Source: a virus
Taxonomy: Duplodnaviria > Heunggongvirae > Uroviricota > Caudoviricetes
Strand: one strand, 5' to 3'
Virus record (IMG/VR): IMGVR_UViG_3300029518_000200
Length of the DNA stretch: 14,419 nt
Shown: in pieces, positions 2,246-14,419 of the stretch
Layout: each line of letters begins with the position of its first letter
Numbering within the stretch: position 1 is the first letter of the stretch
Notes under the pieces: model-generated
Told to the model about the DNA's origin: nothing
What the model saw: only the letters and a program-made list of their open reading frames with translations
Database searches by the model: none
Made by a program: the position numbers and the translations under genes

Positions 2246-2796
2246 CACCATTCTCTTTACACAATTTATTTATTATCATTCTGTAACATTTACCTGTTAG
2301 TTTTATCTCTTACTTATTATATATATCATTGTAAACAGTATATGTATTAATCTCTTTCTATTTATACTGCTTATATTTATCTCTTTTTATTTAATTGTCG
2401 TGTAACCAGTCCGCCGTCAATTACTCGTTTTACATCTATTTTTCAGCATTAACCTCGCAGCCTTAACGACGGGAAATGCTGAGCTGTTTGACTGAACCCC
2501 CTCAGCAGATTATTAGTTACAATTATACTGCTGCTATGTATTTTTTTTGATATATATTATAGAAAACATTTATTTTAACGGTATATACATTAACGATGAT
2601 ATTTTAAAAAGGATTAAATGTAAGGAATATTTTTGAAATATGATTAACTTGGGGAAATATGTTGTGCGGAAATTCGCTGTAAAGATCGTATTTGATTTAA
2701 GATGAATGCTTAAGAATGAATGTTTTGTTATAAGTATTTTCGTAAGCAATGCTCCGAATTGTTGGTCAGTCTACCATACCCTGACAAGATTTTCTT

Positions 2797-2836
2797 AAAA
2801 AAGAGCGCACTTCTCCACTATGGGGTAAAAATGCAC
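2797..2836 (-). terminator. Probable terminator of the ncRNA
   Basis: Minus GTGCATTTTT...AGAAGTGCGC stem (G-U pairs only work on this strand) followed by TCTTTTTT. Confidence 0.6.
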
Positions 2837-3584
2837 AAGATCTTATCAAAGAATCTGATAGGCTGACAAGAATTGAGTATGTTCTTCGTCGGCTTAACCT
2901 CCGTGAATACAGTATATTGTTCTTCCGCACTTCACCGTAGCTTGAACGGAAGCGCTCACGTCATCAGTCGCCCCTTTGCAGGGTTAAGCACTCTCCTACG
3001 CCTTTCGGCAACGACACATCCTAGAGGGAAAATGCCGATACTTCCTGAAGCTGTCATAATCTGTAAATTATGTCAGACATTCATTTCATATGACATGTGC
3101 GGGCTGCGAACCCGAGAATTTTCCATTGGATGCTTTTTCCTCCTGCCCTCTTATTTATTGACCATGGCATCTGGTCTCAACGCGTTTACTTTTTCGGTTG
3201 GTCCCGCGCCCCCGGACCTCTTCCGATTTCCTTTATCAGTGCTCGCCTTCCGACGTTTCCCATTACAGGATGAACCCGGCTCTTCGTCTACCGGTATACA
3301 TATACCATGAAAGAACAGTTACTGTCCGCTGTATGTGTATATGCTGCACAGTTTGTAGGCAGAAATCGTTTTTATCTAATTATAAAGGCCTGCATGAATC
3401 ATGAGTTTTCTATGTCCGGCGATTTTAGACATTTTCTCTCTCCGATACGATGCTTTTGTTCATTGTTCAGACGGATGCCCAATATATCCTTTTTGGCTTC
3501 CGCTCTTTGCATACCTGACCCAAGCGATTTTATGGGCCGCCAGTTCCACGCTCCCTCCGAAGCAGGTAAACAAAAATTTGTCTG
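2797..3584 (-). ncRNA. Putative large structured ncRNA (~790 nt), family unassigned
   Basis: Bounded by a motif-B promoter (3590-3618) and a hairpin plus U-tract (2797-2836); GC-richer than flanks; many nested stems with GNRA loops on the minus strand; no credible ORF. Confidence 0.7.
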
Positions 3585-3589
3585 TATAT

Positions 3590-3618
3590 ATAATATTCTC
3601 AATTTAATATTTGTCCAA
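3590..3618 (-). promoter_or_regulatory. Motif B, sigma70-like promoter TTGGAC-N17-TATTAT
   Basis: Same hexamers and spacing at 6675-6703 and 12067-12095. Confidence 0.75.
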
Positions 3619-3639: not shown

Positions 3640-3675
3640 AGAAAATCAGCATACAGTATAAACCATATGCTGACT
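3640..3675 (-). terminator. Intrinsic terminator
   Basis: Minus AGTCAGCATA-loop-TATGCTGATT-TTCTT, after the stop at 3686. Confidence 0.65.
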
Positions 3676-3685
3676 AAATTGTTAA

Positions 3686-4363
3686 CTACTGGAACATCGG
3701 ACGTTCATCCTCTTCAGCAGCTTCATTGACAGCTCTCTTCTGGTCAATGTCACGGAGCACATCAGCTTCGATTTCTGCCATTGTATCTTCATCAATATCA
3801 AACTGCTGATAAGAAGCATTCTCCATATTGAAGATTAAATGTGCCTGTGTTTCCTGATCATTTCCATCAAGTGTTCTGAAGTATGAAAGTGGGAATGAGA
3901 ATGTTGCTCCAACTTTTCCATCATACTTCTCCGGAATAAAATTGAGTGAGAACATAGGAATTGTTATGTTTTTATTGTCAATATGTTCCTCTGCCATCTG
4001 TCTGTAAGTATTAAGCATTTCCATCAAATCCTTAAGATACTCATCCTGTGGAGTCTCGAATGTAAGAATTACATTTAAGAGATCTCCATCAATTGAGTAA
4101 ATGTCAGCAGTACAACACTCGATTGTAATGTCATCAACAATCTCTCTCTGATCTTCAGTAATCTCATCAAAATCGTCTTCATCGTGTACATCGTGAAGAG
4201 CTTCAATCATTGCAACGATTGTACACGGACAATATCCATCTTCATTTGTTGCAAGAATTTCATTATTAACATCATCTGCTGTAATCTCTCCCGGCTCTAA
4301 CTGAACTTCTTCTACTTCTGGTCTGTCAGGTACCGGTACAGTCATGTTTTCTGTATTTTCCAT
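3686..4363 (-). CDS. Very acidic hypothetical protein (225 aa, MENTENMTV...)
   Basis: Start moved to ATG 4363 (AGAAAGGA RBS); the longer ORF-track start runs through a terminator and motif A. Confidence 0.85.
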   Translation of the reverse strand: MENTENMTVPVPDRPEVEEVQLEPGEITADDVNNEILATNEDGYCPCTIVAMIEALHDVHDEDDFDEITEDQREIVDDITIECCTADIYSIDGDLLNVILTFETPQDEYLKDLMEMLNTYRQMAEEHIDNKNITIPMFSLNFIPEKYDGKVGATFSFPLSYFRTLDGNDQETQAHLIFNMENASYQQFDIDEDTMAEIEADVLRDIDQKRAVNEAAEEDERPMFQ

Positions 4364-4479: not shown

Positions 4480-4917
4480 CTATAAATCACCAAAATCGTC
4501 TGCAGTATCTTCATCTTCGATTTTATTGTTTAATTCCAATGGATCCACTTCTTTATCTTTAATGTCTGCAAGTGGTTCATCTTCTATTCTGTCATTTGCA
4601 TCAAGTTCCATACCCCTGCCTTCATGAGTCTGCATAAAGTTGTCAACTATCTTCTCCATGCTTTCCATATCAAGATTTGTTCCCTCAAATGCTGATGCAA
4701 TATCAGTCTTTGCAAGCAGCTCATTGGTCACAAGCATTTCTGAAAGATTTGAACAATCTTTGAAAGCTCCCTCGCCAATTTTTTCAATATTGTTAGGAAT
4801 TGAAAGGCTGCTTAACATCTGATTTCCTTCATACTGATGAGGCATGATTTCTGTTTTAAGTTTAAGCTGTCTCTCAGTAAGTTCATTAACAAGCTTTGCA
4901 AGGTCATTCTTTGTCAT
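4480..4917 (-). CDS. C-terminal part of the split gene: one BspA-type (LRR_5) repeat and an acidic tail
   Basis: LSSLSIPNNIEKIGEGAFKDCSNL fits LRR_5; no Shine-Dalgarno before ATG 4917. Confidence 0.5.
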   Translation of the reverse strand: MTKNDLAKLVNELTERQLKLKTEIMPHQYEGNQMLSSLSIPNNIEKIGEGAFKDCSNLSEMLVTNELLAKTDIASAFEGTNLDMESMEKIVDNFMQTHEGRGMELDANDRIEDEPLADIKDKEVDPLELNNKIEDEDTADDFGDL

Positions 4918-4971
4918 TTCAACGTTTCTAGGTGAACCAGCAATTCCTTCCCTGCCACCTGCTTCCGGTCC

Positions 4972-5940
4972 TCAGAGTTCCTGAACAATTTCCTTTGCGT
5001 TAAGCTGCTTACCGCCATCTTCAAAGGCAAGTGTGATTGATTTAAATTTCTCATTATAAGTAACTGTCGCTGGACAGATTGTATTCTGGTTTGGTGAGAA
5101 ATATGATGCTGCACAGAAAATACCATTTGTGTCAAATACTCTTACATCCTTATTCTCGTAAACAAGCTGGTCTTCAACCTCTTTCTCTCTTGTCTGAGCC
5201 CATTCCTTGCCTGCTGTAATCAGTTTGTCATGTTCCGGATCGTTAATATCTACAATAGCATTCACAACATTGTAAGTATCGTCAATCTGTTTTGTCACAT
5301 CAATGGCTTCTGTATAACGCTGTCTAGGCTGTCCATCATTATAAGCATAATACGCATTAAGCTTATCCTGAATATCTTTATCAAGCTCGTGGATATGATG
5401 CGCGCCTTTTACATCAATCATTTCAGCAGCTTCCCAGAATCTGTAGTCTTCCGGCTTTCTTCCCTGTAAAGCGTATATTCCGCCAAGGGTATCAAGGTCA
5501 ATATGCGATACAACAACAGTAGCAAATGGTGGAAGCTCAGGAACATCCGGTGTATTACATGGAGCAGGATTGTTCGAACGAGGACCATGATGGGCAAGTG
5601 TCACCATTGTTCCTTCAAGGCACTCATCTCCATATTCGGCTTCGACAGTTGCTTCTGCCTTTATGTTTTTAGCTATATCGTATGATGGCGCAAGGATGAC
5701 TCTCTGGTCTTCACGTATGGCTTTAGAAAGGTCGCCGTTCTTACCAACAACCTTGTATGAGTAAGAATAATTCTGCTGGTTCTGATAGTCGTTTAGCTGT
5801 TTTTCCTTTATTAAATCTATGGCTTCTGTTTCTGTACGACAAATAAAAGCATCTGAATTATACTGAAAGTACCTTGCTGCCAGTATTTTATGTCCGGAGA
5901 AATCTTCGTACCGGACAAAGATTTGCGATCTTTCTCCCAT
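4972..5940 (-). CDS. N-terminal part of the split gene: putative DHH-superfamily phosphoesterase (322 aa)
   Basis: AAAGGAG RBS; motifs TLAHH, SHIDLDTLGG and IDVKG. Confidence 0.65.
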   Translation of the reverse strand: MGERSQIFVRYEDFSGHKILAARYFQYNSDAFICRTETEAIDLIKEKQLNDYQNQQNYSYSYKVVGKNGDLSKAIREDQRVILAPSYDIAKNIKAEATVEAEYGDECLEGTMVTLAHHGPRSNNPAPCNTPDVPELPPFATVVVSHIDLDTLGGIYALQGRKPEDYRFWEAAEMIDVKGAHHIHELDKDIQDKLNAYYAYNDGQPRQRYTEAIDVTKQIDDTYNVVNAIVDINDPEHDKLITAGKEWAQTREKEVEDQLVYENKDVRVFDTNGIFCAASYFSPNQNTICPATVTYNEKFKSITLAFEDGGKQLNAKEIVQEL

Positions 5941-12150: not shown

Positions 12151-12165
12151 AAAACCCATATTTAT
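12151..12165 (+). promoter_or_regulatory. Motif A copy (AAAACCCATATTTAT) upstream of nrdD
   Basis: Orientation flips with the gene; 46 nt before ATG 12212. Confidence 0.75.
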
Positions 12166-12211
12166 CTATGTAGTCTTTATAAAAGAAAAGTAGAAAAAGG
12201 AGGAAATTGAT

Positions 12212-14419
12212 ATGAAGATTATTAAAAGAAGTGGCATGGAAGTTGATTTTGATGTCACAAAAATAGCGGCAGCAGTCAGAAAGGCAAATAATTCTGTTGT
12301 TGACTATGAAAAAATCTCTGAGGATGAAATCATAAAGTTGTCAGAGACTATTGAGAATGCGTGCAGCAATATGCAGCACACTCCTACTGTTGAGGATATT
12401 CAGGATATGGTAGAAAACCAGCTTATGAGCATGAAGAAGTTCACACTGGCAAGAAACTATATAACATACCGATACAGAAGAGAGCTGGTCCGCAAGTCAA
12501 ACACGACAGACGATCAGATTTTAAGCCTTATTGAGTGTAACAATGAGGAAGTCAAACAGGAAAACTCCAACAAGAATCCTACCGTAAACAGTGTGCAGCG
12601 TGACTACATGGCTGGTGAGGTGAGCAAGGATATTACAAAGAGATTTTTACTTCCAGCTGACATTTGGGATGCACATGAGAAAGGTCTTATCCATTTTCAT
12701 GATGCAGACTATTTCGCACAGCATATGCACAACTGCTGCCTTGTCAATCTTGAGGACATGCTTCAGAATGGCACGGTTATCAGTGGTACTATGATTGATA
12801 CACCAAAGAGTTTTTCTACAACTTGCAATATAGCAACTCAAGTAGTTGCACAAATAGCAAGCGCTCAATATGGTGGACAAACAATAGCACTTTCTCACCT
12901 CATTCCGTTTGTAGATGTTTCTCGTAAAAAGATATACAACAGAATGGTTGCAAATTTCAACAAGATGGGATTAGCTGTTTCCGACTCTAAGTTGAGAAGC
13001 CTTGTTGAAGCTGAACTTGACGAGGAAATTAGTCGTGGAGTTCAGACGATTCAATACCAGCTTATTACTCTTATGACAACAAATGGACAGGCTCCATTCG
13101 TATCTATCTTTATGAACATTGGTGACTGTAAGAGCGAACAGGAGAAAGCTGATTTTGTCAAAGTTTCAGCAGAAATTTTTAATCAGCGTATTAAGGGCGT
13201 AAAGAATGAAAAAGGAATATATGTTACACCAGCATTTCCTAAACTTTTATATGTTCTTGATGAGTGCAATATTCATGAAGACTCGCCATACTTCTGGTTA
13301 ACACAGCTTGCTGCAAAGTGCACTGCAAAGAGAATGGTTCCTGATTATATCTCTGCTAAACAGATGCGTGAGCTTAAGAACGGTAATGTGTATGGCTGCA
13401 TGGGATGTAGATCTTTCCTTACAGTTGACCGCTATTCAGAGACTGTTGGCAACATTTCAAAAGCCAAAAATTTTGATGAGCACAAGGGTCATGTATATTT
13501 TGGCCGTTTCAATCAGGGTGTTGTTACACTAAACCTTGTTGATGTAGCATGTTCATCAGGCCGTGACATGGATAAATTCTGGGAGATACTTGATGAGAGA
13601 CTTGAGCTTTGTCATAGAGCTTTAAGATGTCGTCATGAAAGACTTCTTGGAACAAAATCTGATGTTGCACCAATTCTCTGGCAGCATGGTGGTCTTGCAA
13701 GACTTGGTAAGGGTGAAGTTATTGATCCGCTGCTTTTTAACGGATATTCAACCATTTCACTTGGTTACGCTGGTCTTTGTGAGATGTGCCGTTACATGCT
13801 TGGAAAGTCACATACAGATCCGTCTGCGACACCATTTGCGCTTAAGGTAATGCAGAAGCTTAACGAAGCTTGCAACAAGTGGAAAGCTGCTGAAAATATT
13901 GATTATTCAATATATGGCACACCGCTTGAGTCTACCACTTATAAGTTTGCAAAGTGCTTACAGAAGCGTTTTGGTATCATCAAAGGTGTTACCGACAAGA
14001 ACTACATCACAAACAGCTACCATGTGCATGTAACAGAGCAGATTAATGCATTTGATAAGCTAAAGTTTGAGTCCCAGTTCCAGAAGCTGTCTCCGGGTGG
14101 TGCTATTAGCTATGTTGAAGTACCTGACATGCAGACAAATATTCCAGCAGTAGTTGCTGTTATCCAGTATATTTATGACAATATCATGTATGCTGAACTT
14201 AACACAAAGAGCGATTATTGTGAAGTCTGCGGCTATGACGGTGAAATCAAAGTTGTTGAGGACGAAAAGTCTCACAAACTTGTATGGGAATGTCCACACT
14301 GCGGAAATCGTGACCAGAACAAAATGAGTGTTGCCCGCCGTACATGCGGTTATATCGGTACACAGTTCTGGAATCAGGGAAGAACTCAGGAAATTAAGGA
14401 ACGTGTACTTCACTTATAG
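12212..14419 (+). CDS. nrdD: Anaerobic (class III) ribonucleoside-triphosphate reductase (735 aa)
   Basis: N-terminal ATP cone (IIKRSG...FD..KI), HFHD, HNCCL, QYGGQ, MGCRS, TPLES, CEVC/CPHC Zn site, glycyl-radical loop RRTCGYI. Confidence 0.97.
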   Translation: MKIIKRSGMEVDFDVTKIAAAVRKANNSVVDYEKISEDEIIKLSETIENACSNMQHTPTVEDIQDMVENQLMSMKKFTLARNYITYRYRRELVRKSNTTDDQILSLIECNNEEVKQENSNKNPTVNSVQRDYMAGEVSKDITKRFLLPADIWDAHEKGLIHFHDADYFAQHMHNCCLVNLEDMLQNGTVISGTMIDTPKSFSTTCNIATQVVAQIASAQYGGQTIALSHLIPFVDVSRKKIYNRMVANFNKMGLAVSDSKLRSLVEAELDEEISRGVQTIQYQLITLMTTNGQAPFVSIFMNIGDCKSEQEKADFVKVSAEIFNQRIKGVKNEKGIYVTPAFPKLLYVLDECNIHEDSPYFWLTQLAAKCTAKRMVPDYISAKQMRELKNGNVYGCMGCRSFLTVDRYSETVGNISKAKNFDEHKGHVYFGRFNQGVVTLNLVDVACSSGRDMDKFWEILDERLELCHRALRCRHERLLGTKSDVAPILWQHGGLARLGKGEVIDPLLFNGYSTISLGYAGLCEMCRYMLGKSHTDPSATPFALKVMQKLNEACNKWKAAENIDYSIYGTPLESTTYKFAKCLQKRFGIIKGVTDKNYITNSYHVHVTEQINAFDKLKFESQFQKLSPGGAISYVEVPDMQTNIPAVVAVIQYIYDNIMYAELNTKSDYCEVCGYDGEIKVVEDEKSHKLVWECPHCGNRDQNKMSVARRTCGYIGTQFWNQGRTQEIKERVLHL

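Follow-up and report, generated by a model that had tools for sequence, protein, structure and literature searches.

The window, by which we mean the whole 14,419-nt stretch of DNA analysed here, encodes a thymidylate synthase, NrdD, a response-regulator receiver, DUF4317 and many proteins without a known family, and comprises on its minus strand a predicted large non-coding RNA (ncRNA) gene, hereafter the unit, lying downstream of a gene for a 225-aa acidic protein (Table 1). Relatives of the window genes occur on contigs of up to 318-349 kb, and a single allele by itself is present on 328 contigs, the longest of them 331 kb. Viral contigs yielded no relative of the neighbour proteins in four protein scans, and the one weak match of these proteins in genome contigs (E 4e-4) was judged spurious; the element looks plasmid-like, not phage-like. 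Judged by gene sharing, the named record nearest to the element is the Butyrivibrio megaplasmid pCY360 (L033-L051), which has in common with the element a methyltransferase (66%), NrdD, DUF4317 and a ThyA fragment, and in which neither the unit RNA nor the 225-aa protein found a match; pCY360 displays 33 ORF-free gaps of at least 450 nt. The 225-aa protein showed no Pfam, PHROG or plasmid-record match and no usable Atlas match, and its family, which includes relatives of 30-56% identity, is a marker for this element family.

Other parts of the window display features of their own, including (i) a hypervariable cassette at 4480-5940, replaced in relatives by other, longer gene sets, in which a 322-aa ORF appears to fuse the start of a 198-aa gene with other sequence; (ii) an AT-rich 110-nt direct repeat (1966-2074 and 2137-2245, 171-nt spacing), present in three copies in loci L011 and L007 and partly deleted in L003 and L005; (iii) a GC-raised gene-free patch with hairpins at 2385-2510, covered by a contig from an RNA run, with a nucleotide diversity (pi) of 0.068 and no stem constraint; and (iv) a second repeated motif upstream of genes (624-694, 1719-1782 and 12151-12221), distinct from the promoter of the unit.

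A first-pass annotation had proposed that the unit is headed by its own promoter, isolated by an upstream terminator, ended by a hairpin with a U-tract and richer in GC than its surroundings, and each of these sequence features was borne out. The sigma-70-type site TGGACA-N16-TATTAT occurs three times in the window versus 0.02 expected from shuffles, two of the copies heading protein ORFs and the third preceding the unit, where it is kept in all five loci scanned. Both hairpins fold more stably than shuffled sequence (Table 1), and natural changes in that of the unit are confined to the loop region; a pattern scanner listed neither. The GC content reaches 0.45-0.48 within the unit versus 0.26-0.38 in flanking bins. 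There is no ORF directly downstream for the unit to lead, the next credible minus-strand gene starting at 1722 behind a further terminator (1806-1834), and, with no gene after the terminator, the unit is unlikely to act as a riboswitch or attenuator leader.

Table 1. Features of the unit and its immediate surroundings (window coordinates)
Feature	Position	Strand	Remarks
Predicted ncRNA (the unit), ~788 nt	2797..3584	minus	34/789 columns variable in 8 copies, pi 0.016; no Rfam match
Promoter-like site TGGACA-N16-TATTAT, sigma-70-type	3590..3617	minus	predicted +1 near 3584
Predicted terminator of the upstream gene, 14-bp hairpin	3640..3675	minus	folding z -5.5
Predicted intrinsic terminator of the unit, hairpin and U6	2797..2836	minus	folding z -3.2
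Upstream neighbour, 225-aa acidic protein	3686..4363	minus	57 clusters (50% identity) at E<=0.001
5' junction domain, UACCUG/CAGGUA closing GGCCCA/UGGGUC (predicted)	3504..3576	minus	C3534-G3521 to U-A
Hairpin 2 (predicted)	3471..3503	minus	C3496-G3478 to U-A; folding z -2.0
Possible 18-codon ORF	3376..3432	minus	SD-like site, -6.6 kcal/mol
Predicted five-way junction, four hairpins, one GNRA (GGAA or GAAA)	3239..3349	minus	z -2.2
UCGG/CCGA with GGUCC/GGACC hairpin, plus GACCA/UGGUC hairpin (predicted)	3160..3226	minus	no stem substitution among 75
Middle multi-helix domain with CGGG/CCCG and CAUAAU/AUUAUG	3016..3133	minus	predicted
3' core, hardly variable, with nested helices and a pair of GNRA hairpins (predicted)	2892..3009	minus	pi 0.006 over 2797-3045

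Nine related loci, taken from one metagenome scan (121 pattern matches) and fetched via the upstream 225-aa protein, all carry the unit in the same intergenic position, seven of them whole and two ending inside it; an apparent deletion in locus L009 proved to be the end of its contig. Across the eight full copies the variation is unevenly distributed, with pi 0.046 over the 5'-most 115 nt and 0.006 over the 3'-most 249 nt. For comparison, nearby genes display pi of 0.072-0.133 at fourfold sites in five of six cases (DUF4317, 0.017) and 0.009-0.059 at second codon positions, and segregating sites amount to 34/789 versus 80/387, a contrast whose p-value is overstated owing to linkage among sites. 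The promoter spacer (0.041), the patch at 2385-2510 and the AT-rich region (0.080) are more variable than the unit. The AT-rich segment 2511-2796, beyond the terminator, shows an unexpectedly low diversity (0.020), and therefore either a low-diversity block contributes to the pattern or this segment is itself constrained.

The earlier statement that the unit holds no credible ORF led by a ribosome-binding site is right in that a long conserved protein is absent, but slightly too strong given the 18-codon minus-strand ORF with an SD-like site. Scored against the anti-SD motif, this site lies between the extremes seen for six neighbouring genes (-3.1 and -13.4 kcal/mol); three of the four inferred changes in the ORF are synonymous, and the SD is altered in three of eight copies. 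On the plus strand, a 145-aa ORF antisense to the unit has relatives of 93-99% identity only, and its frame changes in 21 of 46 gene calls, near 2932-2935 (11), 3121-3136 (6) and 3207-3212 (4), so that it is not a protein. A further plus-strand ORF of 107 aa varies in length from 70 to 219 aa across 36 gene calls.

The stems listed in the first pass pair as proposed, 64 pairs having been checked by script with the CCCU/AGGG stem entered as two inner pairs; GCUUAACC and the CCCU hairpin share bases 2982-2983, and consequently both cannot be complete. Over its whole length, the unit has an unremarkable fold energy on the minus strand (z -1.35; plus strand, +0.30); among 120-nt windows wholly inside the unit, z falls below -2 on the minus strand only at 3400-3519. 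The full fold and the stability of the RNA are inferred. In the 3' core, whose helices differ from the minimum-energy fold, A2924G and C2949U preserve CUUCCG/CGGAAG; in the middle domain changes are mostly wobble-keeping, with three breaks near 3051-3083; substitutions of the domain at 3160-3226 sit in loops; and in the local fold of the five-way junction five substitutions preserve pairs and two break them. A predicted long-range helix, 3505-3496/2953-2944 (p 0.87), was rejected because position 3496 covaries locally with 3478. Self-complementary segments at 3187-3180 and in the loop 3213-3205 are at chance level by arithmetic and serve as leads only.

Both-sided changes affect 2 of 231 predicted pairs, C3534-G3521 and C3496-G3478, both located in local hairpins and each converted to U-A. 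Changes at 3534 and 3521 co-occur in all ten gene calls that show either, whereas the second pair appears among gene calls as U-A in three, U-G in four and a mismatch in one. The copies are about 98% identical, and the two double changes may therefore be two events. In 500 shuffles run on the 5' model, whose structure was derived from the same sequences, the covariation score was reached four times and two such pairs 56 times. Substitutions were also counted against the stems, using a set of 75 that comprises (i) 34 from the DNA alignment, (ii) 2 from mapped contigs, and (iii) 39 inferred from amino-acid differences in the spurious antisense gene calls, with the transition chosen when ambiguous and with changes beside frameshifts and one ambiguous transversion left out. 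These 75 substitutions break one of the 64 first-pass pairs, which had been fixed before the variants were seen, versus 6.4 expected (P 0.007), and the 41 held-out substitutions break none versus 3.4 expected (P 0.025). The test is weaker on computed folds (P 0.05 for the global fold, 0.16 for the held-out substitutions on the alignment fold, 0.31 for shared pairs), ranges from P 0.005 to 0.38 over six structure sets and three variant sets, and gives P 0.10 with the DNA-only variants of the unit; the plus-strand fold suffers 24 breaks versus 15.8 expected. One of five non-RNA control regions also reached P 0.047, and genes show the same strand asymmetry. The structural evidence is consistent and modest, not decisive.

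Of 24 listed sequencing runs, 20 carry the stretch or part of it; they derive from 12 studies, mostly of wastewater, and three are on record as RNA. Four runs were examined, at the level of contigs. In RNA run X20 a single contig over 4.5 kb matches at full length; it measures 198 nt and aligns at 3387-3578, and its six unaligned letters would reach the predicted +1, a weak hint of transcription of the 5' part. RNA run X16 contributes contigs at 2389-2540, 2631-2996 (crossing the terminator) and 5265-5554, with no contig over 2997-3585, a pattern unlike that of a very abundant RNA. The stop of an X15 contig at 2804 was rejected as a transcript end, DNA run X7 also breaking at 2797-2802. A 789-nt contig carrying the antisense gene call P0091 has the predicted length, a weak hint given the many short contigs listed. 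The proposal of a minus-strand ncRNA is accordingly upheld by constraint, by the two double-sided changes, by substitutions that avoid stems and by broken antisense ORFs, but not by a clear transcript.

Searches for known families gave no Rfam match at gathering score in the whole window, none at E<=10 over 2780-3600, in a search taking in GOLLD, ROOL, OLE, RNase P and introns, and none across four related loci totalling 78 kb. RNase P, tmRNA, SRP, 6S, OLE and raiA found no Rfam or ARAGORN match, and group I/II introns and HEARO-type RNAs no Rfam core match, the unit holding a fixed intergenic position in 9/9 loci; a catalytic or housekeeping identity is set aside because no core matches. Neither the window nor any of seven related loci contains a tRNA gene. 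Distant homologues of the RNA itself were sought in phage and plasmid records, viral contigs and Firmicute plasmids, Lachnospiraceae chromosomes and drafts lying outside this scope. Blastn of the phage and plasmid records found none, the Ligilactobacillus salivarius match being a 43-mer, rich in AT, that lies outside the unit; viral contigs scanned with four RNA patterns returned 0, 14, 7 and 5 loci, none extending past the pattern by nhmmer or covariance model; and nhmmer with two covariance models gave no accepted match on pCY360 and 11 other Firmicute plasmids, two 15-bit matches being rejected for broken pairs. ROOL and GOLLD models run on five plasmids were likewise without a match, but their controls were silent too, rendering this comparison uninformative. 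In the literature, a full-text search with a 19-nt piece of the unit retrieved no paper, a term search of 10.64898/2026.09.22.753630 gave no match, and six unit motifs are absent from the text-readable supplements of PMC8040213, where a sub-motif of 27-219 nt could be catalogued. The first-pass suggestion of a new class is plausible but falls short of proof, with no distant homologues, no significant covariation and no clear transcript.

Among known large RNAs, a close counterpart is ROOL (RF03087), in particular the megaplasmid long ncRNA of L. salivarius, described in the accessible part of PMC5643018 as 520 nt long and very abundant on a gut megaplasmid. Both RNAs are stand-alone and large, lie on gut-Firmicute megaplasmids, overlap a spurious ORF call and show few SNPs between strains; however, ROOL spans 507-659 nt, compared with about 790 nt for the unit, which lacks an RF03087 match, and cage formation and abundance are features of ROOL, whereas the unit is known from sequence and contigs. 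As far as the available text of PMC5737381 goes, only rRNA, GOLLD and group II introns are named as longer and more complex than ROOL. GOLLD (RF02032), with its variable 5' and conserved 3' part (10.1101/2024.12.08.627333, in the portion accessible), resembles the unit in a size near 800 nt, in GNRA loops and in the distribution of conservation, the 788 nt and the contrast of pi between the two ends fitting the expected ~700-830 nt with a conserved 3' and a variable 5' region. It differs in that the unit has no match to the RF02032 3' domain at E<=10, neither a tRNA cluster nor recognisable phage structural genes around it, neighbours not found in viral contigs and no distant homologue in the searches made, whereas GOLLD often lies beside tRNA genes in phages and prophages. 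The ARRPOF and GEBRO motifs, in the accessible part of PMC5737381, share with the unit a plasmid-borne, GC-raised structured region near a gene-free stretch, but average 223-349 nt, and the unit is without origin evidence. OLE RNA is likewise a large Firmicute ncRNA, of about 600 nt, whereas the unit has no Rfam match and lies on a mobile element.

We consider it likely that the unit is a real large ncRNA gene of an uncatalogued family, carried by a plasmid-like element of 300-350 kb that is common in bacteria of the human gut. It would be transcribed from 3584 to 2797, from its own promoter to the terminator-like hairpin, as a stand-alone RNA, with the upstream terminator presumably insulating it from the preceding gene. 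The alternative that there is no functional RNA, the unit being a low-diversity intergenic block or a decayed element with stems arising by chance, would account for the unremarkable fold energy, the low diversity of the adjoining 2511-2796, the lack of a distant homologue in the searches and the thin RNA-run evidence, but sits poorly with a perfect, conserved promoter that points into the unit, a terminator 788 nt further on, the two double-sided changes and the avoidance of stems by substitutions, and we regard it as improbable. That the unit is instead a highly diverged GOLLD or ROOL missed by the Rfam models, as the first pass had entertained, is invited by the similar size, the Firmicutes mobile element and the conserved 3' and variable 5' regions; since Rfam gives no match at E<=10 and tRNA genes are absent nearby, it is not filed under either family, and this origin appears very unlikely.

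As regards function, the leading mechanism, held tentatively and at a little under an even chance, is a trans-acting structural scaffold of the ROOL/GOLLD kind, the reading that best fits the pattern of an independent RNA with constraint over its whole length, GNRA loops and a 3' core that hardly varies. By analogy, the RNA would fold and, as is the case for ROOL and GOLLD, self-assemble through GNRA and loop-loop contacts, and the assembled RNA may work in trans. A trans-acting regulatory RNA with protein or mRNA targets, of the sponge or antisense type, possibly also encoding the 18-codon peptide, could make use of the SD-like site, the mostly synonymous ORF changes, and the motifs CGGAAG and AAAUCG, found four and three times in the unit; four ORF changes are, however, too few, the SD is not kept in all copies, a rough calculation puts the motif repeats at chance level, matches of the unit to other element DNA (five sequences, 14-21 kb) do not exceed 16 nt, and the tightest constraint lies more than 300 nt away from the ORF, leaving this function unlikely. 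ColE1 RNA II is a model for primer and copy-number control, and a replication-linked RNA acting in its manner, or in that of ARRPOF, towards an origin in the AT-rich repeats at 1840-2400 would draw on the 1-kb AT-rich gene-free stretch downstream with its direct repeats, on the X16 contig that crosses the terminator and on the location of ARRPOF in a region needed for plasmid replication (PMC5737381, accessible part). Against this, 1722-2797 contains no DnaA box and no GC-skew switch, genes keep their direction, the repeats differ in copy number and form the least conserved part (pi 0.08), and no rep gene occurs among the 17 window proteins scanned; such a role is rather improbable too.

The scaffold reading extends, as a possible but doubtful proposition, to the unit being the first representative of a new class of ornate RNAs of ~790 nt, with no relation to GOLLD, ROOL or OLE, that builds an RNA-only assembly from itself and, without dependence on phages or tRNA clusters, is carried by a widespread gut megaplasmid of ~330 kb. 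To our knowledge, few structured RNAs of bacteria reach this size, and no function has been settled for either ROOL or GOLLD. If true, an RNA of 790 nt that is unrelated to these two and sits on a frequent gut element would constitute an independent case, making it possible to ask whether cage-like RNAs are of use to mobile elements at large and not specifically to phages or tRNA clusters, and the unit RNA is an immediate target for cryo-EM.
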